A DNA stretch of 62,618 bases, filler included, from Sphacelaria rigidula (lineage: Eukaryota): assembly GCA_964200075.2 (NCBI GenBank). It is 8 parts of 8 records of this genome, joined end to end, with 100 filler letters (N's around TTAATTAATTAA, not from the genome) between each part and the next. Parts side by side here need not be neighbours in the genome. Positions count along the whole stretch, not along the records: positions 23,521 to 31,260 come from CAXNAA020013610.1; 7 more parts are not named here. One strand, written 5' to 3'. A program made the position numbers and the translations under genes. Positions 4,144-49,300 of this stretch are shown in pieces. The notes beneath the pieces are model-generated. The model saw only the letters and a program-made list of their open reading frames with translations. It made no database searches and was not told where the DNA came from. How positions within the stretch are numbered: position 1 is the first letter of the stretch; every line of letters begins with the position of its first letter.

Positions 4144-5303
4144 GCGTCGAAGTGTTTTTTCTCTCAGCGCAAGCTAGCGCTGTAGCTACTCTGTTGGTTA
4201 TTGAGAGAGGGGTTGGTGAGAACGTTGGAACATCGTCAATCTCTTGACGATCACCCCCGAACACCAGCCGAGCCTTTGCCTTCATAACGTAACCATGTTC
4301 GTCAGTTTTTCACTTACAAACTCACTTGGAATCGACCGTTTTCTCTCCCTCCGGCTGTAAATCCACAACTGTCCGAGTGTTGTTATGTTGCAATCCTTCC
4401 ACCTCTCTGTTCATTGCATCAGCCCATACTTTCTTGAACTGAGAATTTGATACATTCTTTACCGTCTTGGGTGCTGCTTCTATCTCACCAAGAGTAGTAA
4501 CACATGGGATCGACTGCAACTCAGACTCCCCTGATTTTCTCGGGTCGTCCTTGCCGGCCAGCTGAGCCAAAATCCGATCCGTGGCCAACAAATCACCGTC
4601 GACGCCCACACACTGTGATCATCTTCTTGCCGCAGTAAATCAGGAACGCGTTGATGCAGTCACTGTTCTTGGCCTTGTTGCTGTAGCAGTCGTGTCTGCT
4701 GCCTGGTCCGACCAAGCGTCGGCTCAACCGAATCTGGTTAGCTCGCGGCATCCTCGCCATCGACAGACAACCCCTCCGACGAGTCACGATCACACGACGG
4801 TGTAGACGATGAAGACGACGTAGGCGATGCACATGACTACTCCACTATGTTCTCGCCGTCGTCGTTGCCTGGTTCCTACTCAGGTTCCGACCGCTCATCT
4901 CCATGCTGTTCAAGTTTCTCAGACACTGCATCACCCGGAAATCCCCCCCCCCCCCCCCCCCCCCGCCCCACCCCACCCCCCACCAACCCACCCCCCCCGC
5001 GTCCACCCCCTTCGCCCCTTCTGCCCCNNNNNNNNNNCTCTGGTTCCCCCCCCCCCTCTTCCTGCTGTTCAAATTTTTCAAACCACGCCCCCCCCGGAAA
5101 CCCCCCCCCCCCCCCCCGCCGAGGTCCGACTCATCGAAATTAGAGCCCTCGACATCGCTCTCCCCGTGTTCTGCATTCTGCGAAGTTTCCCCCCGCTGCC
5201 TAGAAAACGGAACCGCTGGCTGTGAGGTTTAGGGGGGTAAATGACACCAATTGACATTGCGAGTAGTGATCACGTATCTATCTTTCGTGTGCATTTTCAT
5301 GGA
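4144..5303 (-). pseudogene. Inverted copia segment: integrase C-terminal region, linker and RT N-terminus
   Basis: Minus strand encodes YVITTRNVNW...APKTVKNVSNSQFKKVWADAMNREVEGLQHNNT...KAKARLVFGGDRQ..TFSPTP...HFD. Confidence 0.85.
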
Positions 5304-6497
5304 GTCACGAGGCTACGTGTAGCCAGGCCCCGAGTGAAAACATTCCTGTGCATATGCGGTCGCCGCCAGGTCTAGGTGAACGGACAGGTACTGTCGTACA
5401 CCTGAGGAAACGTCTGAACGGGATTCGACAAACGGCTAGAGAATTGTTTGGTAAGCTGGGGAAAACTCTGAAAGGTCTGGGTTTCGAGCAGAGCTTGGCT
5501 GACGCGTGCATATACAGGCTGATGGACGGAGAGGAGTTGAAGGTTCTGGCTGTGTTTCATGTCGATGACATGCTCGTGGTGGGTGATGAGGCTGTGTGCA
5601 AGAAGTTGGCTGCAGATATCAACTTTCACCTTCCGCCGGAAAAATTCGAAGAAATGGTCTTGTATGCGGGGTGCGAGTACAGGCACGACCTCAAGAAGGG
5701 CACTCTGAAGTTGTCACAGACTACATATATCCGACAACCTCTAGACAAGTTTTCCATCATCAGGACCGCCGCGACCCCCGTGAATGTTTCACCTTCTTTC
5801 AAGGTTGATGAGCAAGAGGACTTTAGGGGAAGGTATCGCGAGGCGGTGGGATCGCTGATGTGGCTCTCTACCAACACTCGCTCGGACATCGCCGATGCCG
5901 TGAGAGGTGCGTCCAGGCACAACGAGAACCCGACATCGGAAGGCTGGCGCAAAGTGCTGAAGATTTACGGATACCTGAAGACTGGGGTAGATTTAAGGAT
6001 CATGTATGTCCAGGGTGCGGGCGATGAGTTGGTAGCGTATGCAGATGCCGACAACGCAAAATTCGCCGATCGGCGTTCCGAGTCGGGAGGGGCAATATTT
6101 TCTGTGTGGCTGTGGCTGGATTTTCTCTCCTACTCGGAATAATGTTACGCTGTCTACGACGCAGGCTCAGTATCTGGCGATGGAGGACTTGGTGAAGGAC
6201 GCTCTTATTGTGAAGGCAGTGCTGAAATTCACGCGAGCGCAGAAGAAGTAGTTCTGAATCCCAGTGACAAGTATACGAGGAGAACCAGGGGGGCATTCAG
6301 CTTGCTAATAACCTACGAAGCTGCCACAACAGCAAGCACATAGATGTACGTCATCATTTCTTGAGGGAGTTGGTGTCAGAGCAGATCGTTCGAGTGCAGT
6401 ATGTGACATCATCCCAGCAGCGTGCTGATGTCTTGACAAAACCTTTGTATGTGGACAGCTTTAGATAGCACACGAATGCTTTGATGAACAAGTAGTA
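5304..6497 (+). pseudogene. Copia reverse transcriptase (C-terminal part) and RNase H
   Basis: ORF 5348-6142: LRKRLNGIRQ, GFEQSLADACIY, VFHVDDML, YREAVGSLMWLSTNTRSDI, YADAD..DRRSESG; continues via frameshifts. Confidence 0.9.
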
Positions 6498-7740: not shown

Positions 7741-7840
7741 NNNNNNNNNNNNNNNNNNNNNNNNNNNNNNNNNNNNNNNNNNNNTTAATTAATTAANNNN
7801 NNNNNNNNNNNNNNNNNNNNNNNNNNNNNNNNNNNNNNNN
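7741..7840. other. Artificial contig spacer (also 15581-15680, 23421-23520, 31261-31360, 39101-39200, 46941-47040, 54780-54879)
   Basis: 44 N + TTAATTAATTAA (stops in all six frames) + 44 N, separating 7740/7739-bp contigs. Confidence 0.98.
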
Positions 7841-15580: not shown

Positions 15581-16469
15581 NNNNNNNNNNNNNNNNNNNN
15601 NNNNNNNNNNNNNNNNNNNNNNNNTTAATTAATTAANNNNNNNNNNNNNNNNNNNNNNNNNNNNNNNNNNNNNNNNNNNNCTGACCAGTCAGGCCTGACT
15701 GGTCAGTAGTCTAGTTGGTTGTCTCTTAAACCGTCACAGTATCGACGACACGTGGTGTATGGCCCAACGGCCAAGGCATACCAAACACGAGGTACACCTC
15801 TCACCCCTTCTCCATCCATATCCTTGATCGACTCACCTCCCATAGGCCCTCTCCCCAAGACCACCATGCGTTGCACCCTGGATATTCTCGTTGTCATGTC
15901 CTTCACCCCCCGCTCCCCGTCTCCCGTCGCCATGTACCCCTCTATTGGGTTCGCTGATTGATTTTGTCATCGGCGGTCTCGCCCGCAATACCGAATCTCG
16001 ACGCGCATCCGGTGGCGACTGGCGTGAATATGAATAGCAGCAGCGCTACTCGTTAACGCCGCACCAGGTGTGAACGGGCATTTCACCTACATCTACCGGG
16101 GAAAGACCCTGTAACACCGTTCCGTTGACTCGTCGGATGAATCACCACATGATTACAAGCAGCTGTCCATTATCTCATCAAGTGCCAACACAAAAGGTGT
16201 CGGACACGCAGAATGGATCAAACACCTGTGAATCCATCCGTTGCCGAAGGCTTAAAACTGCCCGGTAACAACAACAGGATTCACAACATTTGAACTGTAG
16301 CTACCTTGCTGCAGCGAATAGCCCACACGATTTCTGAAGAGATTTATCGGCGTAGCCCATCGAGCGCAGTCGATGAAATCGCGTGAGAAAATGCGCATGC
16401 TGTCCACTGCACGCAGGTACTCTACACGATTCACTGAACGCCTAGTAGAATCGAAGTATCCAGCGAACT

Positions 16470-19400
16470 TTACGCAAATTTTATCGACTCAGTTTCACAT
16501 ATGTCGTGTCTTTCGCTTACATTATTTTCTGCCTCGCCCGAAGTCCCGACACCCTCTGTCCTACGCCCCTCACGTCCACGCTCCGCACGCTCCGGGGATA
16601 TTTTCTCCCCCGAAGGTTTTGATGTTCCCTGCCCCGTCCAAATATCGATGGGTTTTCTTTCCCCCCTATCCCCGACCCTCGACGCCGTCCTACCATAGCC
16701 TCTACTGGTACCGCCTCGACCCGGCAGTTGACCTTCGCTTGACCATATTCCCGGAGGAGCTGCCGGCATGGTACTGCTCCGCTGTAAGCTCCGTGACAGC
16801 GTTTGATCGCCACTGCCTCGGTTCGCACTGCTGCGGTTGTGACCCCGTCGCTGCCTACCTGGTTCGGATGTTTGCGCTGAGATTCCGCCGGAGGTCAATA
16901 TTCGTTGCGCAGCTTCCGCTGCCTCCGCCTCTCTTTGCCTGCCTGGTTTGGGTGTCTTATCTCTGTACTCAGCTCCGCCTGCTTCCGCTGAGACTCCGCC
17001 GGAGGTCAATATTCGTTGTGCAGCTTCCGCTGCCGCCGCCTCTCTCTGCTTGCCTGGTTCAGATACCTTGTCTATGTCCTCAGCTTTGCCTGCTTCCGCT
17101 GAGATGCCTCCGGAGATCAATACTCGTTGTGCGGCATCCGCTGCCGCCGCCTCCCGCTGCCTGCCTGGTTCGGACGACTTGTCTGTGTACTTAGCTTTGC
17201 CTGTTCCCGCTGAGATTCCGCCGGAGGTGGATAACCCTTTTACAGCTGCCGTTGCCGCCGCCTCTTGCTGCTTGCCTGCTTTAGATGCCTGGTCTGTGTG
17301 CTTAGCTTTGCCTGTTTTTGCTGAGATCCCACCGGGGGTCACTATTCCTTGTGCAGCTTCCGCTGCCGCCGCCTCTTGCTGCCTGCCTGCTTTAGATGCC
17401 TGGTCTGTGTGCTTAGCTTTGCCTGTTTTCGCTGAGATTCCACCGGGGGTCAATACTTCTTGTGCAGCTCCCGCTGTCGCCGCCTCTCGCTGCCTGTCTG
17501 GTTCAAATGTCTGGTCTGTGTGCTTAGCTTTGCCTGTTTTTGCTGAGATCCCACCGGGGGTCGATACTTCCTGTGCAGCTGCCGCTGCCGCCGCCTCTCC
17601 CTGCCTGCCTGCTTTAGATGCCTGGTCTGTGTGCTTAGCTTTGCCTGTTTTCGCTGAGATTCCACCGGGGGTCAATACTTCTTGTGCAGCTCCCGCTGTC
17701 GCCGCCTCTCGCTGCCTGTCTGGTTCAAATGTCTGGTCTGTGTGCTTAGCTTTGCCTGTTTTTGCTGAGATCCCACCGGGGGTCACTATTCCTTGTGCAG
17801 CTTCCGCTGCCGCCGCCTCTCCCTGCCTGCCTGCTTTAGATGCCTGGTCTGTGTGCTTAGCTTTGCCTGTTTCCGCTGAGATTCCCCCGGAGGTGAATTC
17901 TCCTTGTGCAGCTCCCGCTGCCGCCACCTCTCGCTGCCTGCCTGGTTTGGATATCTTCTCTCTGTCCTCAGCTCCGCCTGTTTCCGCTGGGATTCCACTG
18001 GAGGTCAATCTTCGTTGTGCGGCTTCCGCTGCCGCCGCCTCTCGCTTCCTGCCTGGTTTAGATGTCTTGCCTATGTCCTTAGCTCTGCCTGTTTCCGCTG
18101 AGATTCCGCCGAAGGTCACTATTCCTTCTACAGCTACCGTTGCAGCCGCCTCTTCCTGCCTGCCTGGTTCGGACGTCTTGTCTGTGTACATAGCTTTGCC
18201 TGTGTCCGCGGAGATTCCCCCAGGGTTCACTATTCCTTGTGCAGCTGCCGTTGCCGCCGCATCTCGCTGCCTGCCTGGTTTAGATGTCTGGTCTGTGTAC
18301 TCGGCTTTGCCTGTTCCCGCTGAGATTCCGCCGGAGGTCAACATTCGTTGTGCAGCTTCCGCTGCCGCCGCTTCACCCCGCCTACCTGGTTTAGATACCC
18401 CGTCTGCGTACTCATGTTTGCCTGTTTCCGCTGAGATTCCGCCGGAGGTCAATACTCCTTGTGCAGCTTCCGCTGCCGTCGCCTCTCGCTGCCTGCCTTG
18501 TTTAGATGTCTGGTCTGTGTATTTAACTCTGCCCGTTTCCGCTGAGATTCCGCCGGAGGTCAATACTCCTTGTGCAGCTTCCGCTGCCGCCACTACCGCC
18601 GCCACCGTCGCCACCGTGACAACAGCGGACGCCGGGGAGATAGTAGCAGTGCCGCCGTCAGCTGTCAAAGTTGTATCGATGGCCCCTCCACGAGTTGGTG
18701 ACGAGTTTCCCTGCGCGGTGCCTCTTTGCTGTCCGCGTTTCCATGACGCTTGATTGTCAATGCCTCGGCCTGCACTGCTGCTGTTGTTATCCAATCGCTG
18801 GCTACCTCGATCGGGTGTCTCGTCTGTGTACGCAGCTCGGCTTAGTCCCAATAGCATATCGCTGCCAGGCGATCTTCGCTGTGTAGTCGCCGCCGCCACC
18901 GCTGCCCCCGCCGTTCCCGCCTTCGCCACCTGCAAATAGGGCGGCGGAGAGGCGTCACCATTGCCACCGTCCACGATGTCACCCGCAGAATTCCTGTTGG
19001 AGACTTTCCGAGAGGTCGACGACGGGTTCTCCGGGGAGGGAGGAGCTGCTCGTGCGGTACGAGTCCGCTGTCCGCTTCCGCGTAGAGTTTGATCGCGACT
19101 GCTTTGACCCCCACTGCTAATGAAATTATCGTTTCGTTGGCTTCCTCGTTCGAATGTCTCGCCTGTGCACCCAGCTCGGCCTATATTCGCTGGGACGCCG
19201 CCGTGAGACTCTCCTTGTTGTGTAGTAGCTACTGCCGCCGCGGCTGCCGCTGCTTCCGCTCCGGCCGCTGCCCCCGCTGCCGCCGCCTCCGAATAGGGCG
19301 GTGGGAGAGAATCATCGTCCCCGCTGTCCGAGGTTTCAGCCGCTGAACTCGAGTCGGAGACCTGCCAATACATCGACGGTGAATCCTCCGGCGGTGGATG

Positions 19401-21034
19401 GTCTATTCTCGTCGCGTCACGTGACAAAGGAGGCCGTCCGTGACCCCCTCCGTTCGATAGCCTTTGTTGTTGGTCACTTTTCTCCCCTCTTGAGCTTGAA
19501 ATGCCCGCCCTCTTCATGGCGGGTAGATTCACATCATCAGCGCTATTACTTGCGACACCACCATCTCCCAGACTCGTTGGTGCAGACGGCCCACCAGCGA
19601 CCGGTTCACATTCACTTGCGCGTTGTCTCGGAGGGTCTTCTCGCGCAGTACCTCTTCGTGGCCCGCTTCCCGGCAAAGATTGGTCTCCACTCTCTCGGTC
19701 CGCGCTGCTGCAATCGTGATCCTCGTGCTGTGTGCCTGGTTTGGTAGTCTCATCTGTATTTTCAGATCGATCTCTTCCCGCTGACATGTTGCCGTCAGAC
19801 ACTCTTCGCTGTTTAGCTGCCGCTGATCCAGGCACCGCTGTCACCTCCGTCGGATAGGGTGGCGGAGGGGCCTCATCGTCGCCGCTGCCCAAGGTGTCGG
19901 TGGCTTGCGTCGGGTCGACGACCTTGCGTCCACCGTTTACGCCCGACCTGCTGCTGTTGCGGACCCCTCGCTGGCCACCTCTCTCGGCTGTCCTGCGTGT
20001 GTACCCAACTTGGTCTATTTCCGTTGAGGCGTCACCTTGAGCAGATATTCCTTGTCTTGCCATCATCATCGCCGCTTCAGCCGCGGACGGCGTCGGGGAG
20101 ACAGCATCGTCGCCGCTCTTCGTGGTTTTAATCGTTGAAGTTTGGCCCATGATGTCCGCCCAAACTGTAGGCGAGTCCGCCGGCAATTGCCTGTCTCGTC
20201 TAACTATATCACGAGTTAAAGGAGATTGTTTACGATGCAAATCGCCCGATTGTTGTCGGCAGATTTTCCCCCCTCCCGGAGTTGGAATTCCCATCCCACC
20301 CTTCGCCAATCCATGTCCTGCATCAACGTTAACGCCGTCAATTATGTTGGTGTGGTAGCCACTGCCGCCGCCGGCATCTCTGCCGCCACCATCACGGCCT
20401 CCGCTCCCATGAAGATTCCCCTTCTTTGGAGATTTCTCTTGAAAGTATGAGTCGATCCACTGTAGCTTCGCGGGTGCAACCGCGATAGGGCTGCAGTGTG
20501 GAGCTGCCACGCCGCTGCCACCCGTGCCAGACGCTAACTTCTCGTCTAAATGAATCCCCGCTTGTCTGGGCGCCGTTGCAAATTTAGCTACCGCGTGGCT
20601 TGAAACATTGCCACCTTCGAAACTGTTGCGCGTGCTCCTTTGTGCGCTTGCCTCGCTGTTGAAAATACCTCTGTCAACCTTCTGGGGGACCGGAACCGGA
20701 TAGATATTCGACGCGAAGTGTCCCAGAGTGGTCTTATCAAGCGTGCCAAGTGCAAGATCACGATGCGAGTTGCCGTTTTTTCGCACAGGACTCCGACCGC
20801 TCGGAAGCAGTTCGTCGTCGTCATCCTCGCTACTACTCTGCCTCGAGTCCCCTGTCATCCACGGTCTCCAGTATGTTTGACCTCTGTCATAGCTAGTCCC
20901 ATTGCTGCTCAAAAGGAGTGCACCTTCACTAGCGCTTCTGCGACGCAGCGCAGGAGACGGACCTTCGACACGTGTGATTTGCCGCTCGCTTCTGGATGCT
21001 CTGACATCTCCACCTCCACCTTTGCAATCCCCCC
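16470..21034 (-). CDS. Very large (~4.5 kb) exon of a low-complexity tandem-repeat protein of unknown function
   Basis: 1538-codon stop-free ORF; acceptor AG at 21036-21035 in phase with upstream exon; 3' end either stop at 16470 or donor GTAAGC at 16520. Confidence 0.8.
16860..18590 (-). repeat. Coding tandem repeat, 111 bp / 37 aa, ~15.5 units
   Basis: Unit GGISAKTGKAKHTDQASKAGRQGEAAAAEAAQGIVTP; period measured 17283 to 17394. Confidence 0.95.
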
Positions 21035-21308
21035 CTATTTTTCCAGGAATAACGATAAAAAAAACACTGTTCAGTGATAGCCTCATGACATGTTCAAAAC
21101 GGTAGGCGGTGTCTGATCACGGATATCATTTGCAAGGCTCTGGAAACAGCTTTACACAATCCTGTAGCTCTGCTGTAGCGACCCAGTTTCTCTCACCACC
21201 ATCTCGTGAGCCGCGAGCTATGTCAGGCATGGGCGACAGCATTTTTGGTCAACACATAAAAAAAAAAAACATCGCAAGCTCTGAAAGACAGTGAGCATGT
21301 AACGTTAC

Positions 21309-22866: not shown

Positions 22867-23520
22867 TATATATTGCCGTTGTAATGTATATATATATATA
22901 TACATATGTTGGTACCCTTGGACTGCACACGTATTGCGCGCCCAATATATAGTGGTACCGTGGGGTTGAACAAATATTGTCCCATCTATATACATTGGGG
23001 CAGTGTGGACGACCGCATATTGCACGACGAACATATATTAGGGTCGCATTGGTGAGAACATATTGACCGATTAATATATATATATATATATTGAGTCCGC
23101 GTGAGTGCCAATGTATTGGCTGGTCAATTTATGTTGGATATTATAAGCATGGTGTACGCTTTGAGAAAGATCCAGACGCGATGGATGCCGGAGCCCGTGC
23201 AGATTGGGAAAAGCTTCAAATGGAGCCGCAGAACTTAGAGTGCATTGCTACGGAGGGGTCAAATACGTGTGTTATGTGTGCACATATATATATATATATA
23301 TATTGGTAAAAAAATATGGTGACAAAAGAGGCGACCCGGTATATAGAGGGAAACGTACCAATTATGATACGATCAAGGTACCTGGCGGGAAAAACTCTAT
23401 ATCTTGGGACCCATGGCACGNNNNNNNNNNNNNNNNNNNNNNNNNNNNNNNNNNNNNNNNNNNNTTAATTAATTAANNNNNNNNNNNNNNNNNNNNNNNN
23501 NNNNNNNNNNNNNNNNNNNN

Positions 23521-23629
23521 CATGGGGATTCATTCATCACGAGTCAACTTGTTATACTAAAACCAAGTAATTTCCTGACGAATCATCATTTGTCCTAACC
23601 TTGGAAATTTTTCTTTCGGCAGACCCTTG
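23521..23629. mobile_element. End of a P-like element (related sequence at ~52944-53030)
   Basis: Ends CAGACCCTTG like 12397-13018; shares tcacgagtc..atactaaaaccaagtaatt..gacgaatcat with 52944-53030. Confidence 0.55.
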
Positions 23630-26166
23630 GTGATGGCGTAATATACTAGATCAAGTAAGTGCAGCAGGCGCCAAAATGTTCGCCAGGAGGAATGTGCCGA
23701 CGATTCTGCCACGTATGATAGGTGTGATGGGACGATGAAACATGTGGATGTCTGCGCGGTGTGAGATTACTCGCTATGGGTCGGCAGTATCCACAGGCAC
23801 GAATCCCACACTCCCAGCAGGTGCGTTGTACTTCCTCCAATGTTAATACACGTAATACCTACTCCCTTGGCTGCCACGACTCCTTTCGGAACAACGTCAT
23901 TGTTGGAACCTCATCGCCACATCACAGCTGCCGTAACATAGTACGTGGAAAAACCGCCCGTGCTATCCTCTACAACAATACAGCAGAGTGTCATTTTTAT
24001 TTTCAACTCGCGGAAGTACTTTGCGCCGGGTTCGGCACCAGAAAGGTACATCAGAAAACATTGTTCCGAAAGAAGGCGTGGCACGCAAGGGGGGACACCA
24101 GAGAAATCGTACTGAGGCTTGCCCTGTCCCTCCTTTGGCTCATATTTTCATTTTTTCTCGCATACCTCGAGAAATTCGAAATTAGCATCGAATCACCTGT
24201 ATTGTGGCGAAACAATAACGGGAAAGGCGATGCTATGGGCTCAAGGAACAACGTGTTCGGGAGATTGAGAATAGAGGATATGATGAGGCCCTTGACATTG
24301 CTGAGTAGGATATCGACGTGTAGCTGTGAGCACACATTAGTGATTGAGGCAAAGGAAAGCACACACGGCGCGGAAGAATGGCTACGTTCAAGCGAATCAT
24401 TACCGAAGTCGAAAACAACACTTCGTGTTGTCTCTCTGGTGCCAACATTCAACAATCACCTCAAAACTCGAAAAATTATGCTCTGCGTGGCTTGGATTAT
24501 TGCCACAGAGCTTCGGCCCGCCCAGCTCGTACCATCTTCGTTTTCGACGCTCCAGGGGGAGGGGTGAAATGCCATCATCTTCGACAATATCGACCTGACT
24601 CGGTTTCAGGAGGACAATCCCACTCCCGCTCTTCAGGATCTCCCAGCAAATTCAGAAAAAAAGGCTAAAAACTGCAGAGCAGAAAGTCCTGGGGCCCGTT
24701 TTGTGGCGAACATTCGAGAATCATCAAGGGATATCACGAGGCCAATCGATCATATTTTTCACAGACGAGAATCCGAACTGCGCGGAAATGGCACGTACAG
24801 TAGTGGAGGTGAAGTTCCGTCGTTACTGTACCTCAATGAAGAAGCGTTTTCATCGAGATTGTATCAGGAAAAAAATTGTTGTCGGAAACGAAACGACACA
24901 CGATGCTTCTCAAGTGAAAATTGACTTCATCATCATGATTCATCTGAAGAGCGCACCAAATGACAAAACATAGATGGCACGAAATTCATCGCCAGGACGA
25001 ATAAAAGTCAAGTCACCCACTCATTTTTGTCGCTTACAACAGACATTACGCACTTCCGCACGTATGTTAGTGGGCTGGCGATGAATTATGCCAAAATACG
25101 CCGTAGGGGACTATCAAAAAACGATATATTTAAAAAATCATGTATATTTTTATTTACTTCTTGTCGATCTACAGCTGCGAAGTCCCGAAACAAAACAAGT
25201 AACACACTTTTCTCGGCTCTCCTCCCCACCCTCCACCCCACCAGGACACTTTGTACCATTCCGCCCTCTGTTCCCTCCGCGCAATGGAACGGTCAAACTT
25301 ACCACTAATCATGCCCCCAACTGCCCTCTTCGGTCTAGCACGCTGTATTTACAAGAAGCGGACCACAAAGAATATAAACATCGATCGACCCTGCTTTCTT
25401 CCAGGTTATGAAGATCTTCAACTGCTGGGTTGCGACGAACCCGTCCGCACGCTGACCACGTACTGCGGAACGGGGTGAACAATACCTCTACTCTATATCT
25501 TATCTTATCCCTTCATTTGCATCACAGTCTCTCTCAGCTTCATGGGAATCAAGTCAGTCGCAATATTCTTCAACACACGCATGGAAAGAAAAAGAAAATG
25601 ATCGAACAATAAAAACACGGCCCACGGAAAAATGAAGCAGACCCACGGCAACTATTATCAAAACACGCGAAAAAAAATCAAGTACCTGAGGCGTTCGGTA
25701 CGTCCCCGTGCTCGACTCAGCAACTTCGAAGGCACATGGGCTAGCACCAATTTTCGCCTGGGTTTTTGTTGTAAGTCAGAAATCACCTAGAAGCTTGATC
25801 TATCTCATCTCGAAGCATACCGTACTTTTCTCTTGAAACTCGTTGAAAATCTCATGTACTGAAACCATCAAATTAAATGGGTAAGCCTCCTCCCCCCACA
25901 GGAATAGATCACTATCAAGCGCTGACCCTCTTCGTGAACCCCCCGCACGTTCCCGCTTGTACTCTTTGCGACACATCGCAACCATGCCTCACCTTCTGTT
26001 TCCAAACCTTCTCAAAGCCCACACACGTATATCGCAGTACAATATCAGCACGCGCTAAACTCATCATGTTTTCTAATCGTATTCCCTCCCCTCCCCCCCC
26101 CTACGGACTCTTCCGTTTCAGGTTTCCAAGTGCTGCGACGTTTTTAAATGCGCCCGTAACAGCGCT

Positions 26167-26747
26167 TCAAAGTGCAATCACTGCACTGGGTGGCGAGACG
26201 AAGGTTGCCCCACCATTTCCTCCACTGTAAAACATGAGCAGCTCCTCATCTGCCCCGATCCCGATACCGCTGGCATCCACGGCCCCCGAGCCACCTTCAT
26301 GTATGTCTTCGGTCATGAGGTCCGCGAAGAGGTGGTCGACGGCGTCCTCGGCGCTCGTCAAACACCCCCCTTCCGTGCTCTCACCCTCTCCCTCCCCGTC
26401 ACCTCGTTCGCTGTCGGAGGAGGACGTTGAGCAAGCACCGGACATGAGCTCCTCGTCTTGATCCTCCCCATCTGTGCAACCATCGCCTATCGAGCCGTCG
26501 GCGCTGCTGACGCTACGCGGCGCAAAGTCGGTGCTGCCGTCCGTTTTTTGTTCCATCTCTGCCCCTCGTTGGGTCAATGTTCCTTTCGTGTCGACCACGG
26601 TCCGCTGCGTCAAGGCAGGCGCGGGAACACTTTTGCTGTCATGGTCGTTTTCGTTGTTGATCCTGTGGCCATGCAGGACGACGGCTGTTGCAGGGGGTCT
26701 TGCAGTCTGCTGTTGCTTCTGTTTCATGCTGGGTTTTGTCTCCGCTG
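26167..26747 (-). CDS. Acidic C-terminal region of the bZIP factor, reached after removal of the unconventional intron
   Basis: Same frame as bZIP ORF; ..AAETKPSMKQKQQQ...DGEDQDEEL...AVDHLFADLM...DEELLMFY...SAVIAL*; in-frame TGA at 26763-26761 lies just upstream of the 3' hairpin. Confidence 0.75.
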
Positions 26748-27092
26748 CTGGAAGACTGGTTCAGGCCGGGATCACGGATCTTTGCACCCCCCAGCGCCAC
26801 CACCCCTTCCCCTCTTTCGGCCGACAGACTTTGTCCCGATCCTCGGTACGCTTTACCCCACACGTGACTTCCCCCGGATCCGCCATCCCTCCCCCCCCCA
26901 TCCCTAAAGGGACAGAGGTGGGGAGCAACGAGAGGAGGGGGGGAGGGTACGCAGTGGGGTCGAACACATAACGAAGAATTGAGAGAAAGGGACAGGTCGG
27001 CGGGCGGGAGAGGTGGGAGGGTGGCAGGGAAGGAAAACACAAGATATGTGTGATGCTACCCCGGCCCGATTAAAAGTGTTACGCAAACACTG
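26748..27092 (-). other. Putative IRE1-type unconventional intron (345 nt)
   Basis: 5' hairpin CGCGAC-[CAG|CAGU]-GUUUGCG; 3' hairpin GUCUUC-[CAG|CAGC]-GGAGAC; inner 12-bp and outer 8-bp stems; in-frame fusion on removal. Confidence 0.8.
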
Positions 27093-27732
27093 CTGGTCGC
27101 GACATATTAAAGCATGAAGAAGTAGCCATGGCAGAATAGGCAGTGGACCCTGCAACCGTCGCCGAAGATGAAGCGCCGGTGTTGCTGTCGGGGGCCAAAA
27201 GAATCATGGAGTCGAAAGACGACGATAACGACGATGCGGATGCCCGGCAAGAGCAAGGCGCTGACGCCTGAGCCGGACGCGGGTACCAAGTGTACGGCGG
27301 CCGCGGCGCAGGGGTGGTGACCGCAACGGCGGGGGTCCCCGCGTGGTTGTTGATGGTGCCACCAGACTCCAAAGTTTTGATGCGGCGGCGCAGGCGGCGG
27401 TTCTCGTCCTCCAGGGATCCCACCTGCACCTCGAGCTCGCCGATGCGGTCGCTCTTGCGCTTGCGGGAGAGAGCGGCTGACTCCCGGTTCCTGAGCATCC
27501 GTTGCTGCTTGCGCTCCTCCTTCTCGTCGGAGGATCCACTAGCGGCGGCACCCGGAACACCCGGCCTAGAGTGCGCCGCCTGGGCCACGAGCCGTGCGCG
27601 GGCGGCGGCCAGCTTCTTGGCCCGCTCGGCTCGTGCCTGTGCGGCGTTGGGATTCATGAAGGAAACCTCGTCCAGGATATCGTTGCGCGAGGTCCTTGCT
27701 GTCGCGAACGGGGATATGGGTGTAGGTAGCAT
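27079..27732 (-). CDS. bZIP transcription factor, HAC1/XBP1/bZIP60-like (unspliced 217 aa; spliced 406 aa from this Met)
   Basis: ERKQQRMLRNRESAALSRKRKSDRIGELEVQVGSLEDENRRLRRRIKTLE = basic region N-x7-R plus leucine heptads; ends SRPAVFA*. Confidence 0.92.
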   Translation of the reverse strand: MLPTPISPFATARTSRNDILDEVSFMNPNAAQARAERAKKLAAARARLVAQAAHSRPGVPGAAASGSSDEKEERKQQRMLRNRESAALSRKRKSDRIGELEVQVGSLEDENRRLRRRIKTLESGGTINNHAGTPAVAVTTPAPRPPYTWYPRPAQASAPCSCRASASSLSSSFDSMILLAPDSNTGASSSATVAGSTAYSAMATSSCFNMSRPAVFA

Positions 27733-30700
27733 GGTGTTCGTAACGTCTACGCTTCCTCCTTGTGGATTCCCAGATTTCCCTCCGCTTGCCCCTGCTTCGA
27801 AAACGTTGTCCGTCTCGTTTCCTGTCGTTCACTCCCCTCGGAACTGAAAATATCGTGATGACGAACGACGAACCAAAACGATTACCAAATCTTGTTATAA
27901 GGAAACAGTCGGATCAAACGGCGTCCGGCCTCTTGGCGATTGAGGAATTCGATCACCCCGGGGGATTCTCGGGTGGTGCTGTGTGTTGTGTAGGCGTGAG
28001 TTCGTGGATATCCATATCACGAACGGAATATCAGCGCGGTGGAGGTATGGTTGAAGTGATGAGTCACCTAGAGTTCAGCAATCCATCTGTTTTGATGAAG
28101 TGGTGAAGGGTCCGCCCGCAAACAGGAAGGGGGAGGAGGAGGGAGGGGGGGGCGAGGAGGAGGGTTGAGTACGTGGTCAGAAAATTCAGCACATACCGTA
28201 CGAGTACTGTAGACGCACCGTGATCGAAAAACCCGTAATCAAATCTGACTCATTTTGGGAGTAGGACGAGAAGCGGAAAATCATGCGGGGGATTCGCTCG
28301 GGTGTTTTTGAAGATACAGTATCTCAGGATTTCCGGTCGATGAATGTAATTGGGCCACGGTTTGATGTGCGACATCACAAAAATCATCATGGTTGAACCG
28401 AGTATCATGGGTACATCCTGCAGCAGAAGTACGAGGTTGCCAAACGAATCCCCGTTGCTGGAAAATCCCGAGACTAGACGTGGTGCCACGGCACTGTACG
28501 GAACGATAGAGCGAGCCGCACACGACGCTGGTACCGGCGGGATGAGTACTGCCGAGCAGAGACCTAGATTCAACCACTCCTGGTGAATGTGTCAAGAGCC
28601 CACCAGAAACCATGGTTGTTGGCACTTCGTTCGTGTTACCTACTCGTGAGTGGTTCATGTGGAGTCGTATGGTTGGATATCTAATGTACGTACTTCAGTA
28701 TGTATAGCGAACGCGGGTACATATAAGCACCGTGTACAGAAAGAACCTTCAAAACCACATATCATGCCGTACAGCATAGCAGGGTGAGCCACAACCGGGG
28801 CTGGCATCGGCGGGATGAGCACTACTGAGTCAAGCAAAATTCCATCAATTTTCATGATCGTCGTACGGAGAAGATGAACTACGAACTTCAACCCAAGGAG
28901 ATAATAATGTGTTTTTGTGCCGTTGTACCAATGTACAAGGCAATTTAGAGCGCAGGGTCATGAGCTCAATATAATAAGACAGTTCAACAGTACGCGACAT
29001 AAAATGGCGTGAATCTTGGGCGGACATGGTACAGGCGCGAGATACCTGCAGCGACGACATCAGAGCGCGCTGTGGTGACGCAGACAAACGGGTTTTCATC
29101 ATGCGACTGCATTGTTCTGTGCCATCTTTCTCGACGCCAGACGAACTAGCCATGTTCCAAGTTGACCGCTGTACAGGTTGTGTAGAAAATGAGACGGAAG
29201 GACCCCGTGCCCTGACCGCAGAGAGTTATATTATATGTGGGTCATACTACTGTGTGAGACACACATCTGCAAGTGCTACTGCAGTGAAGAGCGAAAGCCG
29301 GCTTTGTGGCAAATCGTTAACTGACGACAGCGAACGAGCACACGGTGATGTTGGGCATTGAACTGCGCAGTCTTTGCGGTCGAAAATGCTACGGCTACCA
29401 GCTACAGTCCGCAAATCGTACTGTGTGACGCAACTTGTATCTGGGCTGTGTTCGAAGTTGTAGGGCAGGACATGGCAGGGAAGTAGCTATACTAGAGGAC
29501 CCCCAGCTTCTGCGCGCAGACCGCTTGGGGTTATGGGTATACTACGGTGGTGGATGGGCTCATCTACAGGGGCTGCTTGTACTGCAGTCAAAGGGGGAGG
29601 GAAGGCTCGCTGCGAAACCTCGAGTGACAGCACCGAAAGAGGGCATAGCGGTGTCAGCCACCGAATCAACAGTCTACACATCTGAAATATTGCTGCAACT
29701 GTCAGCTAGCCTCGAAGTACAACGCTGTAGTTGAACACAGCAGTACAAAGTATTACGCAGTTTGTCCATCTCATTTTCAAGTCATGCTTCACGTACATTT
29801 TTTTCACGTCCTTGTATCTCACACACGGCGCCAAGAACAGCACACCCCGACTACTGTCGGATCAGATAGATCTCAACGTCTATCGCGCGTACTAGCGGAC
29901 CCATCTACCGGTTGACTGCACATGAGTACGCGTCGTGAGAAGGCTCACCTCGAATGATACCGTAGCAGTTGAAACTTTCCAGTGTTGTGAGAGCAAGATC
30001 TTCAGTTGTGACGGTGGGAGGCTCCAACCCAAATCCAGAACATGTGACAGAACTTTTTCATAGGGGAAGACACGTGGACAAACGAGAATAGCAATAATGA
30101 CGCATAGAACCATTCCACGGGTTCTTGAAGTTCCGCTGTTTGAGAGTTCGAATATACGGTGAATAGACTGGAAGAGGTATATAATGTAATTTTTCACCTT
30201 GGAGGGTATAGTGGAGAAACGCGAACTCAACTGATAGCGGTTTTCTCGTCTGTCTGGTGAAAAACATCACCATTATAGCGCAGTCACTGCAGGCAAAATA
30301 TCGGCACCGCACCGAATGATTAAAGCTACTGTATTCACAATCCCCGAATACCCTTCGTGCAGCCTTCTTAGATGGTATGTGAGTTGCCAGCAGTGGTTGT
30401 ACTACTGTTGGCGTGAAGTGCAATCGCGGACAAATCTAGGAGAATTTGACTTGCTCTCGAAGTCAAGAGAAGGAAAACTCCAGTATGAGTAGCAACCTAT
30501 ACCTGCCTGCTGTGCTGCACAGACTGCACGCCACGACACCGTCTGCACGATAGGTGATGTCTACAGCTCGTGGTCTGGTGAGTATATCTAAACGCACGAC
30601 TGACATAAATCAAGCGTATAAAATATATACAAACTTTGTGTTGATCTTTTGAGGGCCTCTTGTTTTGTTCGGCAGAAATCTACTGCCTGCCGCTGACGAC

Positions 30701-31034
30701 GCCAGCAACAACAGCAAAGATGAAAACCTTAGCGATTTTCCAAACGCAACGCAGCTGCCCGGCTGTCTGCGCAGATACAACAACAGATCACAGGATCATG
30801 AAGCAGGTAGTGTGCTCGTGGAAACAGACCGTATGGTTATAACCAATGATGTATGTAGTCATCAAGTCACGCGTCAGATAACTCCTTCATTCATCTCCTG
30901 CTTGATCGGAAAAAAAAAAGGTGCGAAGACACGCCCTAATGAAAGATTTCATAGATGCTCTCCGCATGACTATTACCAGTATGGCCCGTATGGATTTCCC
31001 TACTGGCCTGTATCCGTACGCCCCCCGTAATTCC

Positions 31035-31116
31035 GCATCTCATACGAGCTGGGCCAGCAGTATATGCCGCATTTACATCTCCAACCATAACTCATCAAGT
31101 GTACCAAATCAGCTCG
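31035..31116. repeat. Dispersed repeat shared in reverse orientation with 39201-39280
   Basis: ctgggccagcagtatat.ccgcattt.catctccaaccat.actc.tcaagt.taccaaatcagctc. Confidence 0.75.
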
Positions 31117-32899
31117 ACTCGAGCATATCGCTGTGAAGTGCAGACCAACCTGGTAATGCACGGCACTGCCGCTGGTCGATTGGCGAAGTTTTAGCGATGA
31201 TAATATTATACTGCACTGAGTACCGGGAACGTCTCGTGTCGTTGCGTGATAGCGTGTCTGNNNNNNNNNNNNNNNNNNNNNNNNNNNNNNNNNNNNNNNN
31301 NNNNTTAATTAATTAANNNNNNNNNNNNNNNNNNNNNNNNNNNNNNNNNNNNNNNNNNNNCCACGGCTTATACACTGCCTCATGGGTGTCTCACCATATT
31401 AGCACGACGTAGTACGATCATCCCCATTGTGCGGAGTTCAGGTTCTCCCACGCCGCACGACATGATCTGGCTTGACTATCATCATGGTTACCGCAAAAAA
31501 ACGCAAGTGCGCAAAACAATCGGTAACCTGGTTGCCTAGCTTACGCGGTCAGTGGCGTGTTTTATAGCGTCAGCGCTAACCGACGCCAACCTCATCGGGG
31601 GTCCGCCCCTACAAAACCGGGACGGACCACCCCGGGTTCTCGCCGGGCCAGGCTAAAGGGTGGGTATGTGGGGACGGGGTTTGGTTGTTTCGGAGTGATT
31701 TGGCCACGAGCAGACAACAAACATAGATATATATATATCATGTGTCTACCCTGGTACAAATTTCACAGCAATGTCACGTATTGCATTATGTTTAGTTTCG
31801 AAATGTTTCCTCATATTGCAGTCGGTTGGGAATAATTGCCAAAGCGCATTCATGTAATGTTCCTGATTTGGAAAACTACCCGAACCGTTGGCGGATATAT
31901 AAAATGCCCATTCAGAACAACTCGTCGAACGTTGACGAACATCTGTTGGTGCAGAGCAAGTTGACCAAGCATTGCGGACAATCGACAGCCTCCTAGAAGA
32001 GCTCCTGAGTAACCCCGCAGATTGTTTCCCAACTTAGGTGTGCCTACATGAATATTCCCCGCCTGAACTGGTGCATCAGTGGCAAGAGCGCTCTAACTGC
32101 TGAGAAAATATGGCTCATGAGCAGAAACCCTTGCTCCCTTAAGCTACAGCTTGTCACGGACGGATACACTCCACTCCTTGTCCGTAGCCCCTTGAGCAAC
32201 CGCGGCATTCGTTCCGAGATTATGGAGACTGACAGTTCAACTAGTGCGGTTAGAAAATTACCTTGACATAAGCATACATGACCCCCACTAGTAGGCCGTT
32301 TGGGCGTGATTACATACTTAGTTCTATATTCTTTGTTGAGACCAATAGGATCACGAGGTGAGAATTTCCTGCCTAGACCACACGTTCAAAACGCGAAAGG
32401 CGATCGGGATCTCTATCCCTTCTCCTACTCTCAGCGCCACGAGCTCCCACTTGGGCAGCAGGAGGGTGTAAGGGGGACAAGCCCGCCATTGCGGCTTCAT
32501 GTGCATTGCTTGGGTGGACGTCACGGTATATCGTGCTCGTTCTGCTCAGTTGACTATCGAGGTGGAGAACAAAACTACGCGAAGGTCAGGCACAAGATGA
32601 AAACAATTCCCAACCACTTGTGAACGCACCGCTTACAGTATCCGGATGATCGTGTCGGTCAGATGATCGTGTGGATACAACAGCCCCGTTCTGTGTACTC
32701 AAACAGATTACTGCCCTCTTGCACTTGAGTAGGTGAGAAGAAGATGGAATATATGTGTTTCAAGTATTTTTACGTCACTTTTGACACGTAGAACATTTAT
32801 TTGATGAAAAGGCGCGAGGGAAATGAGTGAGGGAGGAGGGCGTCAAGCACCAGCCTGTCTCGACTGCCTACGATCTAAACTCTACTGTCGGCGCAAAAT

Positions 32900-38700: not shown

Positions 38701-39391
38701 CTGCAATCCCAACCTCACCGACAGCTGGCAGCAGGCTACCGGTGGTGACTCGACCTCTACGACCGGAAGCAGACCCTGCCCGCTCCCCGGCCACAGCACC
38801 ATCAAGATACGATGATTGATCTTGACCGACGTTCCCCTCTATTCGCCCAACTGTGTTTTCCTCAACAGCGTAGATGCGCGACAGCCTCTCTGTCAAGGTC
38901 CTTGTCTATGCCTCGAGCAGCGTACAACAACGATCCAAGTTCGAACTACCAGGTTAATGTATTCGAATGATTGTGATCATCACATGACCGTGTACCAGCA
39001 ACTGCCCCGTGCTGTGTGCTCAAACAGATTACTGCCCTACTGCAAACAGTATTTTCGTGAGATTGAGAGTAGATGATACGATTGAGAATGAAAAGCGGTC
39101 NNNNNNNNNNNNNNNNNNNNNNNNNNNNNNNNNNNNNNNNNNNNTTAATTAATTAANNNNNNNNNNNNNNNNNNNNNNNNNNNNNNNNNNNNNNNNNNNN
39201 GAGCTGATTTGGTAAACTTGACGAGTAATGGTTGGAGATGCAAATGCGGAATATACTGCTGGCCCAGTTTGTACAACTCTCATTTTCCTTCAGTCGGAGG
39301 TAGACCGCTGACGTTATGTTGTAGAATACGAAGTGGTACTTTTGTACGCCAAATAAGTACCTGCAGTATACCTCCTCCGTGCTCTCTATTC

Positions 39392-46300: not shown

Positions 46301-49300
46301 GATTTTTACTCGGATGGCGATAGTTGAAATATCAACCTTAGAACTCGGAATGTTCCTCTTCCACCACACACATGTCAGCAGAAAATATTGTGCGTTGACA
46401 CGGCCCAAGACACGGCCTTACCAATAATACGTTGGCCCCGAACGAATTGGTGCAGCGGAGTGCAATTGGTTTGCTTGACTGCGTTTGGGTCCGAGCCAAT
46501 TTGCACGCTCCCGATGGAAAAAGGGTGAGGATTTCGTGATACGGTACTCGGTTCACTTGTATTCAGTACAGACAGTGCAGTGCCGTCTGCACTGTCTGCA
46601 TAGTGTGTGCATGTTCCGTACAGTGGGATGTGAAGAAGGGGGCAACATGCAGAACAGACAGCACGTTTCGACCATACACTGCGTAGAGGAGAATACTCAG
46701 AAGATGTAATCAACATGCAATATCATACGGGGTTCATGAAGGCGTGCGCAAATTCCTCGCCCACCATACCACGCAGTTCCGTCGCCAACTCCTACAATAG
46801 AAGATGCTCAAGTTTTTGCCGGCCAAAAATGAAGGCATCATCCCTGAACGATGGTATTTCTAGTTCCCAATCTCGTAACCTTCTGATGGTTGAGTTGTGG
46901 GGTTCGATTCTCGGAGCGGTCAGGGAATTTTTCTTACACCNNNNNNNNNNNNNNNNNNNNNNNNNNNNNNNNNNNNNNNNNNNNTTAATTAATTAANNNN
47001 NNNNNNNNNNNNNNNNNNNNNNNNNNNNNNNNNNNNNNNNTTTCCTTTTTTTTTTTCTCAGTCAGCTTCGTCTGTACGTTATCTCTCTAACGAGCCCAAC
47101 TGTAGCATGATCGTGAGCATTGAAATACCCACACGATTAAACGTCCGTAACGATACAGACTTATGGGACAGAGGAAGTATTAATTTACAAAAAGGTTCAA
47201 AAGGGTAGTTCTCAGAGAGTTTTTTTTTTCAGTCTAAATAAGCGGCCTAAGGGTGCGGGGTTGTTTTTCATTCTTCATCATTGAATTTCATGGCAAAATG
47301 TCCTAGGGTGGAAAAGTAGTTTTTCTCATCATTCGCCCGTACCGATTCTCCACGCAAAGCAAACTTTGAATTGCAACTCTCAAAATTTAGGTGAGAATCC
47401 GCCTGCAATGTAGAGATCCACTTTTAGGCTAGCCCACCTCTCGATTCCAGCCGACGGGGTTTTGCCCCAGTACCCAGTCGCACGTACAAGAGAAAAACGA
47501 AAAGCATCTAAACGCTTCAATATATTGAATGATAGTGGAAACACTGTGCAAAGCATAGATAGCTATTTCGTGTGATTTGTAAATTTAAATTCACTACCGA
47601 TTTTATCCGATTGGTTATCACTACTGAGGAAAACAAGCTAACCCCCATATTCTCTGGATCACGGATCTGAGAATGTTTCGTTTTATTCAGTACACACATC
47701 GCGGCAATATTGTGGCATATGACACGATGAAGAAACGTTTTTAATTCTTTACAGCGTCACAGAGTTGCAAACGTCACGAACCCAGAATATACGGTCTTCC
47801 AGTGGAAAACCGCCACCGCATCACCGCCACCAGCAACCGCTCAGCAAACACCTCTTTAGTACAGAACTGTATTCTACAGCTGCATTCAAAAACAGTCCCG
47901 TGACCATCGCTCTGTTTTTTAGCCGTCCCGACTGGTGTTCTACAGCTTTTGTGTGTCTGTTCACGCGAGTCAGGCCACGGAGGGAGTGTCAATTAGCGTA
48001 AGAGGAGGTGAGGTGCTGTTGTCACGTAGCCTGTATTTTGTTGCGAGAGCTATCCCCAAACGTTGCGACTCATACCTGCGGTGCTTCGATCAACGCTATT
48101 CCCCCTATCGTCGTGTCACTGGTTGTGCTTGTATCCCTCTGCTAGCTATCGAGGAAGTTGAAGCTCTCCCCCTTTCACCGTGGCCCAACGTAGGGATAGT
48201 TCGTCATCAGTCCAGACAGAGTAGTGAGGGCAGTCCCATACATACCACTTGTATTGACAAGCTTCCATGGCGGAGTGCGGCGACGTCAAAACGGCGTATT
48301 ATACTCTACTATAAGCCAAATGTGGAACAACCCCACGCACAAGGTACAGTATATAGAAGGCAGCAGTCAACTGTTTTCCCGATGATACGACTGCTCAGTA
48401 GAGAGACGACCAGCACTTGCGGGGATGAATGTGACGTGACTGTTGTCTCTCTGTTGATCATACTTGCCCTGCTGTTGTACTGACAGAACTAATCTGTACT
48501 GACTGAACCGTGTACTGACTGTTCTTCTCGTAATAACTAAATCATACAGTATCGTCCTCGTGTTTTAACTATTTATACAATGCAGCCCTCACCAACTTAA
48601 AAAGGCGATCTTGCCCACTTGAGACATTATGTTTCACAGCATTTTGAGCCGACGTGGAGCAAGGTCGTGAGACCGATCGTGCTGATTCATCTGTAGCCAT
48701 GAGTCGATGTTGTTGATGCGCATGGCCTCCAGCGCTTCGGTGCTTGAGATAGTCAGGTGCAGCATAATGTTGGCATTCAGGCGTACACAAAACCCTCTCG
48801 GCGTTTGAGGCTGGCCGCACGTGTATGTTTCCCAGTTTCTTGTTTGGTCTGGTACGGCAAGTACTACTGTTGTTGTCCTGTCGCTGACTTATCATTGGAT
48901 TAGCCGCTGTGAAAATGCAAACATCAAGTGTGACTCGATGACTCGATGTTGGTGTCCACAACAGAAGTACCGAACTCAACATGCTCGCGGCATGACAGCA
49001 GTTGAGGCGGGTTCTTACCGAAAGTGGCTACGAGTACTGATATCGTTTCTCAGAACGTCACGTTTGAAGCATGATTGACCCAACAAAGTCCAGTTTCGAG
49101 TCACATCGAGACACAGATTTGCCCAGATCGAGGCCCAAAACTGAATACCGCTTCACAAATTCGGCGGTTGTTCAAGTGGTCGTTAGTCCAACATCTCTGT
49201 ACTGCCTCATTGAACAAGGCAACACAACACCTACACACCGAGTCCCGAAAACCCACGAATAGAGATCCACCACTCACACGCATTAGCTCCAGCGCTAGCT

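Follow-up and report, generated by a model that had tools for sequence, protein, structure and literature searches.

The brown alga Sphacelaria rigidula carries a minus-strand gene for a basic leucine zipper (bZIP) factor whose mRNA holds two reading frames that the excision of a single 345-nucleotide (nt) segment would fuse into one. The gene lies in a 62,618-nt stretch of DNA from assembly GCA_964200075.2 (hereafter the window), in the part at 23,521-31,260 (CAXNAA020013610.1). From its sequence and that of its relatives, we consider it very probable that this gene is a splicing switch of the HAC1/XBP1/bZIP60 type, worked by the endoplasmic reticulum (ER) stress sensor IRE1. The first-pass annotation of this DNA had read it as a candidate IRE1-type unfolded protein response (UPR) switch, and that interpretation is supported by the presence of both frames on one exon, a PAV[FI]A protein tail at the first site, a conserved second open reading frame (ORF) and twin loops in relatives.

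No sensor of ER stress is more widely conserved than IRE1. To our knowledge, its splicing substrates have been described nowhere but in animals (XBP1), fungi (HAC1), and green plants and algae (bZIP60, bZIP1). If the present reading is true, a stramenopile example would fill a large gap in the eukaryotic tree. It would further let ER stress be read directly in brown algae and diatoms, as a size shift in reverse transcription PCR, and would offer a natural comparison between short and long versions of one unconventional intron. The accessible text of a 2026 review names only XBP1, HAC1 and plant bZIP60 and describes such splicing as reported in very few systems (PMC13149111), and a review table lists IRE1-bZIP1 in microalgae, citing Chlamydomonas work (PMC13545648). 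In the Dictyostelium case, the factor was still called unidentified in the portion consulted of a 2018 review (PMC6025073). Heterokont bZIPs have been grouped with ATF6/OASIS, fungal HAC1 and plant proto-B factors in a paper whose accessible text leaves splicing unmentioned (PMC4736632), and a transcript annotated ERN1/IRE1 stands in a Saccharina latissima list (PMC6742357), which is the one lead towards an IRE1 gene. The first-pass annotation knew of no described IRE1 substrate in brown algae; we found none described for brown algae, diatoms, oomycetes or other stramenopiles, in a search that did not extend to subscription journals and supplements.

The switch would work as follows. In the resting state, the mRNA would be translated into a 217-residue (aa) bZIP protein without the acidic part encoded by the second frame. 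Under ER stress, the RNase of IRE1 would cut after the third nucleotide, G3, of two hairpin loops (CAG/CAGU and CAG/CAGC, with slashes here and below marking the cut or junction), and an RNA ligase would then join the exons, giving a 406-aa bZIP factor whose new C-terminus is acidic and probably activating. The flanks of the two exons are predicted to form a helix which, together with a rod formed by the segment itself, would bring the two loops next to each other and keep the exons attached. The anatomy, the order of both ORFs on one mRNA, the conservation of both sites and of the second ORF, and a short version of the design in distant relatives are shown below; that the cut takes place in vivo, that this genome has an IRE1 gene whose product makes it, that stress triggers it and that the C-terminus activates are inferences.

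Gene anatomy and transcript structure

Reading of all frames places the bZIP ORF on the minus strand between an ATG at 27732 and a TAA at 27081-27079, and its product ends in ..MSRPAVFA. Pfam recognizes the bZIP domain at residues 70-122 of the 217 (bZIP_1, E 1.4e-10; bZIP_2, E 1.4e-7), and a sequence search of the PDB returned CREB and Jun bZIPs as the nearest chains (E 1e-3 to 8e-3), that is, generic bZIPs only. The last codons of this ORF make hairpin 1, CGCGAC[CAGCAGU]GUUUGCG (27101-27082, loop 27095-27089), whose arms of 6 and 7 nt form 3 bp, a bulged U27085 and another 3 bp. Hairpin 2, GUCUUC[CAGCAGC]GGAGAC (26756-26738, loop 26750-26744), has 6 contiguous pairs and sits at the start of an acidic frame (26760-26167) with a TGA at 26763-26761 directly upstream of it.

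When both loops are cut in silico after G3, the piece 27092-26748 (345 nt, 115 codons) is lost without a change of frame, and 214 residues are joined to 192, giving 406 aa with the junction ..SRPA/AETKPSMKQ.. in the protein and CCAG/CAGCGGAG in the RNA. The removed segment begins with CA and ends with AG and so lacks a GU start. The first-pass annotation had set out this same anatomy, and its hairpins, loops and ORF ends are present to the base, the 345-nt (115-codon) removal yielding 406 instead of 217 aa was reproduced by the cut, and the non-GT start and the in-frame stop just upstream of the acidic ORF are there to be seen. Within the segment, the bZIP frame meets three in-frame stops (27081, 27072 and 26763), which argues against readthrough into the acidic frame.

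Transcript evidence came from contigs of four sequencing runs aligned to 23521-31260, no RNA run being on record for this DNA; contigs drop rare variants and show presence, not absence. Contigs of runs X1 and X4 carry two joints that skip 28087-29948 and 30053-31149, both GT..AG on the minus strand. Run X6, a DNA run with an even word depth of ~62 and a 6212-nt contig across the region, is without either joint, and X1 and X4 therefore represent spliced transcripts of the gene. One X4 contig of 2979 nt combines an exon at 31150 or above, the exon at 29949-30052 and an unbroken 25266-28086, and an X1 contig covers 25586-27920 with 0 differences. Because the contigs are unbroken over 25266-28086, a single mRNA exon carries both ORFs and still includes the 345 nt between them. 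Ordinary GT-AG introns number two and are confined to the 5' untranslated region (UTR). Ordinary splicing is ruled out as the bulk route to the acidic frame, and an unspliced resting form fits. Attachment of the acidic ORF by GT-AG splicing, which the first-pass annotation had named as one way to refute its reading, is not what the bulk transcript in the X1 and X4 contigs does.

Conservation in brown algae and marine relatives

Homologues of the bZIP ORF number 32 and span 119-380 aa; those with a named source come from Laminaria, Ascophyllum, Ectocarpus and Hapterophycus, all brown algae. In most (25/32) the protein terminates as PAVFA or PAVIA, immediately followed by the stop. An alignment of 24 PAV[FI]A homologues has a conserved bZIP core and invariant P213, A214, V215 and A217, and the ~80 columns between hardly align. 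An RNA site under constraint would leave just such a trace in the protein record: a short invariant tail and a stop, preceded by a region that drifts fast. For other brown algae the hairpins are read from protein tails alone, and conservation at the nucleotide level comes from metagenome loci (below). A profile scan of genome contigs for orthologous brown-algal DNA (alignment A1) gave 53 pattern matches and 0 relatives, and a 21-nt pattern had 0 matches in genome contigs and 0 in viral contigs.

The second ORF has relatives of its own. An exhaustive search with its 192 codons against 1.84 billion representatives found three proteins, all separate ORFs: P0033 (78% identity), P0034 (48%) and P0035 (51%). 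These share invariant blocks with the second ORF (e.g. ..LMTEDIHEGG..) and differ from it by gaps of whole codons. The acidic frame has no Pfam match, and its GC contents at codon positions 1/2/3 (GC1/2/3) are 0.63/0.51/0.65, against flat values of 0.44-0.55 in both UTRs. The second frame is coding, given these conserved blocks, the whole-codon gaps and the GC1/2/3 pattern set against flat UTRs. Its most conserved stretch, at 26290-26337, may be inferred from sequence to be an activation motif. P0034 begins further upstream than the others and reads TSLPAAET, as does the window, with wide divergence over the following 30 residues. Hairpin 2 consists of these eight codons, and the first four (TSLP) lie inside the segment to be removed; conservation of TSLP is therefore not explained by the spliced protein.

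Some homologues hold a bZIP and a C-terminal region in one frame, namely P0026 (379 aa), P0028 (371 aa) and P0029 (366-379 aa range). In a profile comparison (hhalign) with the acidic-ORF alignment, the best match of all three falls on the D-x-L-[FV]-x-x-L-M motif of that most conserved stretch, near their C-termini, at E 1e-3 to 2e-3 and a probability of 15-21%, which is weak. The motif match is a hint that bZIP and acidic parts go together. These single-ORF relatives may lack a stop in the segment, lack the segment, or be spliced forms that were assembled as such. In P0028 the frame runs on past an internal ..NQPAVFPT.., and P0029/P0023 represent a kelp paralogue that also has a bZIP and D-x-L-[FV]-x-x-L-M in a single frame. 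A more distant, AT-rich bZIP, P0032 (144 aa), ends in ..CNSSQEPAAFKLF, which is similar to the C-x-N..PA[AV][FY] tail of hairpin 1 and could point to the hairpin-1 site in yet another lineage.

Metagenome contigs scanned with an alignment yielded 12 loci (L001-L012). Six of them, L001-L006, encode a related bZIP (bZIP region 40-55% identical) and carry both loops: hairpin 1 reads ..GCUAC[CAGCAG(U/C)]GUA(C/U)GC.., and hairpin 2, CUCC[CAGCAGC]GGAG, follows 49-54 nt downstream. Hairpin 1 is built in these loci as in the window, with 3 pairs, one bulged base in the same position, then 2 or 3 pairs. At hairpin 2, the 13-mer CCAGCAGCGGAGA occurs once in the window (0/100 shuffles contain any) and once in each of L001-L006, and it is absent from L007-L012. 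The latter six encode a different bZIP from a GC-rich organism, have neither loop and serve as a small negative control. The first-pass annotation had asked for covariation across brown-algal orthologues; the loops are kept at the nucleotide level in the six marine loci, with brown-algal support through the protein tails and P0034.

The in-silico cut removes 50, 54, 49, 49, 54 and 49 nt from L001-L006, respectively, as compared with 345 nt in the window. In all seven sequences it lengthens the stop-to-stop frame, from 249 to 438 in the window and, in L001-L006, from 170 to 312, 236 to 354, 233 to 309, 202 to 352, 217 to 339 and 230 to 396, gains of 76 to 166 codons in the six loci. The junction reads PA/AE in 7/7 and LPA/AE(T/N) in L001-L006, whose new C-termini are acidic. 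Removal shifts the frame in four of the six loci, as it does in XBP1 and bZIP60; in the other two the segment is in frame and carries a stop, as in the window. The nearest cluster to the L001-L006 bZIP in a protein atlas is a diatom bZIP cluster (score 0.90), which is a lead only.

These sequences give clear signs that the switch module would be common to at least two stramenopile lineages. On balance we favour, with moderate confidence, a history in which the common ancestor of photosynthetic stramenopiles already had the switch, brown algae and a second lineage, probably diatoms, now sharing the two CAGCAG loops and the PA/AE junction, and in which the segment grew from ~50 to 345 nt by way of a self-pairing rod, so that a long, HAC1-like, stop-based intron would have originated independently. 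On this history the gene would be the first IRE1 substrate outside animals, fungi and green plants or algae, and the module would date back further towards the eukaryote root.

RNA folding and competing explanations

The segment is strongly structured. A 411-nt fold around it reaches -191 kcal/mol, compared with -152.3 +/- 5.75 kcal/mol for shuffled sequences (z -6.73), and 0/100 shuffles are as stable. In the minimum free energy (MFE) fold, a C-rich 5' half of the segment pairs with a G-rich 3' half to form a rod, and around hairpin 1, the rod and hairpin 2 the exon flanks are predicted to close a helix (27122-27111 with 26730-26716). Folds of L001, L002 and L004 show the same plan in miniature, with GUGC/GCAC as the outer helix and a central hairpin between hairpins 1 and 2. 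DNA depth over the 345-nt segment is 62-72 in X6, the single-copy level, and the rod is therefore not a high-copy repeat. The rod itself may tune cleavage or the holding of the exons.

At the level of the sites, hairpin 2 conforms to the strict pattern published for yeast in PMC549064 (UCUUC[CAGCAGC]GGAGA at 26751, with C1, G3, G6, closure by a Y-G pair and a stem no shorter than 5 bp), and its pairs have probabilities of 0.44-0.85 in the window ensemble. The loop of hairpin 1, CAGCAGU, and its C-G closing pair fit the IRE1 loop rule. Folded alone, hairpins 1 and 2 do not exceed shuffles in stability (z -0.21 and -0.88), and Rfam has no family at gathering score in the window region or in L001-L006.

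Several results weigh against a switch of this kind. Hairpin 1 fails the strict contiguous-stem pattern and passes in its bulged version; its inner pairs have a probability of at most 0.02 and are not the predicted local fold, and forcing both canonical hairpins costs ~5 kcal/mol. A competing hairpin, AGUGUU/AACACU at 27074-27090 on the minus strand, shares bases with the stop codon and with the 3' arm of hairpin 1 and is preferred in the ensemble; it could work as a switch by hiding the 5' site, or be an artefact of the prediction. Single consensus sites are at chance density in the window: the strict yeast pattern (4 bp plus Y[CNGNNGN]G) has 6 matches on both strands, hairpin 2 among them, against 4.7 +/- 1.9 in 200 block shuffles, and a one-bulge variant has 7, against 5.0 +/- 2.3. 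Because motifs alone occur as often as in shuffles, the case rests on their placement and conservation. Covariation is not significant over the 6 distinct rows, with one double-sided change in hairpin 1 (G-U to U-A), a result reached by 75/500 shuffles, and none in hairpin 2, whose two outer pairs exist in the window only. The expected joint 27093/26747 is not among the 15 joints listed for contigs of the four runs; the contigs hold 16 joints besides these, and rare variants are lost from them. BLASTP of the acidic part against the three single-ORF relatives yields weak similarity (E 0.010, 0.65 and 0.058). Finally, the methionine just after hairpin 2 is kept in 3/3 brown-algal sequences that cover the site, which could mean independent translation, and searches of longer proteins with the acidic ORF or the bZIP ORF gave no fused form, although this is weak evidence.

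The last two observations also favour the best-placed competitor, which we nonetheless regard as improbable: that the two ORFs are expressed separately from one mRNA, the acidic one through reinitiation or internal entry at the ATG 26726-26724, with PAVFA serving as a protein motif such as a degron or localisation signal. In databases the acidic ORF indeed occurs only as a separate protein, and P0033 starts at that very methionine. Against this, the conservation seen in P0034 begins upstream of the methionine, exactly over hairpin 2 (TSLPAAET), and the methionine codon sits in the predicted exon-exon helix (CAUGCU/AGCAUG), an alternative reason for its retention. L001-L006 keep no methionine after the site, and yet the frame set by the cut is open in 6/6. 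Separate translation also gives no reason for identical CAGCAG loops, with G at loop positions 3 and 6, at both sites.

Excision by the spliceosome, with the segment as a rare non-canonical or alternative intron, is very unlikely in our judgement, even though the gene has ordinary introns and the segment ends in AG. Its start is CA, not GT or GC; it is kept in bulk mRNA that has lost both true introns of this transcript completely; and in 7/7 sequences each boundary lies between positions 3 and 4 of a 7-nt loop, which is the IRE1 rule (PMC549064). Slighter still is the chance of coincidence or a relic, in which the sites are defunct or were never functional and the acidic frame is untranslated 3' UTR: single sites as common as in shuffles, short hairpins no stabler than shuffles and a thermodynamically disfavoured hairpin 1 would suit it, but the second frame has invariant blocks and codon-sized gaps in three relatives and coding-like GC1/2/3, both sites are kept in two deeply separated groups, and the hairpin-2 13-mer is single in the window and found in none of 100 shuffles.

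Known IRE1 substrates, feature coordinates and surroundings

One of the known systems closest in design to the proposed IRE1 switch is HAC1 of Saccharomyces cerevisiae, which is processed by Ire1 and tRNA ligase. IRE1 sites are described as 7-nt loops with C1, G3 and G6 that are cut after G3, and the HAC1 intron as 252 nt long (PMC549064); both genes encode a bZIP factor with such twin loops, and both have a long multiple-of-three segment that carries the unspliced stop, 252 nt in yeast and 345 nt here (PMC549064). The likeness to a long in-frame HAC1 intron with a stop, drawn in the first-pass annotation, thus holds for intron length and in-frame stop. In both, removal exchanges a short tail for an activating C-terminus, activation being putative in the alga.

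In yeast HAC1, pairing between the intron and the 5' UTR blocks translation. For the known part of the algal 5' UTR, the longest Watson-Crick match to the segment is 8 nt, equalled in 89/100 shuffles, and with G-U pairs allowed it is 12 nt, reached in 74/100. The Sphacelaria segment differs in pairing with itself as a rod, with no 5'-UTR pairing above chance. Its new C-terminus, at 192 residues, is also far longer than that of yeast. The predicted exon-exon pairing, in turn, resembles the RNA zipper of metazoan XBP1.

XBP1, spliced by IRE1alpha and RtcB, shares the twin 7-nt loops (PMC3216516, PMC13149111). Its intron is 26 nt long, those of bZIP60 are 23 or 20 nt, and their effects on the proteins have been described (PMC3216516). 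As in XBP1, a shorter unspliced bZIP, presumably translated, would give way to a form with a longer C-terminus and an activation domain, from 261 to 376 aa in the human protein and from 217 to 406 aa here. Unlike the 26-nt frameshifting intron of XBP1, the 345-nt segment is in frame and acts through stops; L001-L006, with segments of 49-54 nt and a frame shift in 4/6, are closer to XBP1.

Plant bZIP60 (PMC3216516) and Chlamydomonas bZIP1 (PMC13545648) resemble the present case as IRE1-bZIP modules of photosynthetic eukaryotes. For bZIP60, moreover, loop nucleotides are reported to be kept in 16 plant species as the surrounding protein drifts (PMC3216516). Splicing of bZIP60 removes a transmembrane domain and shortens the protein from 295 to 258 aa (PMC3216516), whereas the algal protein has no evident membrane anchor and would nearly double in length; the lineage, too, is stramenopile rather than green.

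The coordinates of the gene and its proposed regulatory elements are collected in Table 1.

Table 1. Parts of the Sphacelaria rigidula bZIP gene, in window positions
Feature	Position	Strand	Basis
5'-UTR exon, upstream, partial	31150..31251	-	Contigs X1 and X4 join 31150 to 30052
Conventional intron, 1097 nt, GT..AG	30053..31149	-	Joint (CT..AC on +) in X1 and X4, absent from X6
5'-UTR exon, 104 nt	29949..30052	-	RNA contigs
Conventional intron, 1862 nt, GT..AG	28087..29948	-	Joint (CT..AC on +) in X1 and X4, absent from X6
Last exon: rest of 5' UTR, bZIP ORF, 345-nt segment, acidic ORF, 3' UTR	25266..28086	-	RNA contigs
Possible 3' UTR extension of the last exon	to about 24644	-	
Unspliced ORF, 217 aa + TAA, ending SRPAVFA	27079..27732	-	Frames, Pfam, 32 homologues
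bZIP domain, residues 70-122	27367..27525	-	Pfam, PDB sequence search
Predicted exon-exon helix, 5' arm	27111..27122	-	Pairs with 26716-30 in MFE and both-hairpins-forced fold
Hairpin 1, proposed 5' cleavage site, cut 27093/27092	27082..27101	-	Bulged pattern only; loop and bulge position shared by L001-L006
Segment proposed to be removed, 345 nt, CA..AG	26748..27092	-	In-silico cut; retained in RNA contigs
Long rod inside segment (limits approximate)	26765..27069	-	MFE, base counts of halves
Hairpin 2, proposed 3' cleavage site, cut 26748/26747	26738..26756	-	Strict published pattern; 13-mer shared with L001-L006
Predicted exon-exon helix, 3' arm	26716..26730	-	Folds
Second coding part: CA + 192 codons + TGA, acidic, in frame only after the cut	26167..26747	-	3 protein relatives, GC1/2/3
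Most conserved motif of second part, D-H-L-F-A-D-L-M-T-E-D-I-H-E-G-G (putative activation motif)	26290..26337	-	Mostly invariant columns, alignment A4

Around the gene, high-copy repeats lie at 23521-23778, 24295-24552 and 31003-31260, with summed word depths in X6 of 1.9e5 to 3.1e5 as against ~62, and many loose ends fall at 24284-24342. Run X5, labelled as another organism, includes a 229-nt contig identical to 26870-27098, in the interior of the segment, at depth 2.4 and covers no other part of the gene; this contig supplies no orthologue and may be carry-over between samples.

Elsewhere in the window, paired runs of 44 N with 12 letters between them occur at 7741-7840, 15581-15680, 23421-23520, 31261-31360, 39101-39200, 46941-47040 and 54780-54879. 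They recur every 7840 bases (7839 before the last) and look like record masking, not biology. Remains of retroelements at 5270-6139 (+) and 57403-58146 (+) comprise a fragment of a copia-type reverse transcriptase (RVT_2, E 4.8e-13) and a zf-CCHC zinc knuckle (E 8.1e-6) within a frame. A stop-free frame of 1548 codons at 16470-21116 (-) has no Pfam match, and its second half consists of ~18 tandem copies of a ~32-residue unit (..AAAAEAAQG.LTSGGISAETGKAKHTDQ.SK.GRQRE..).

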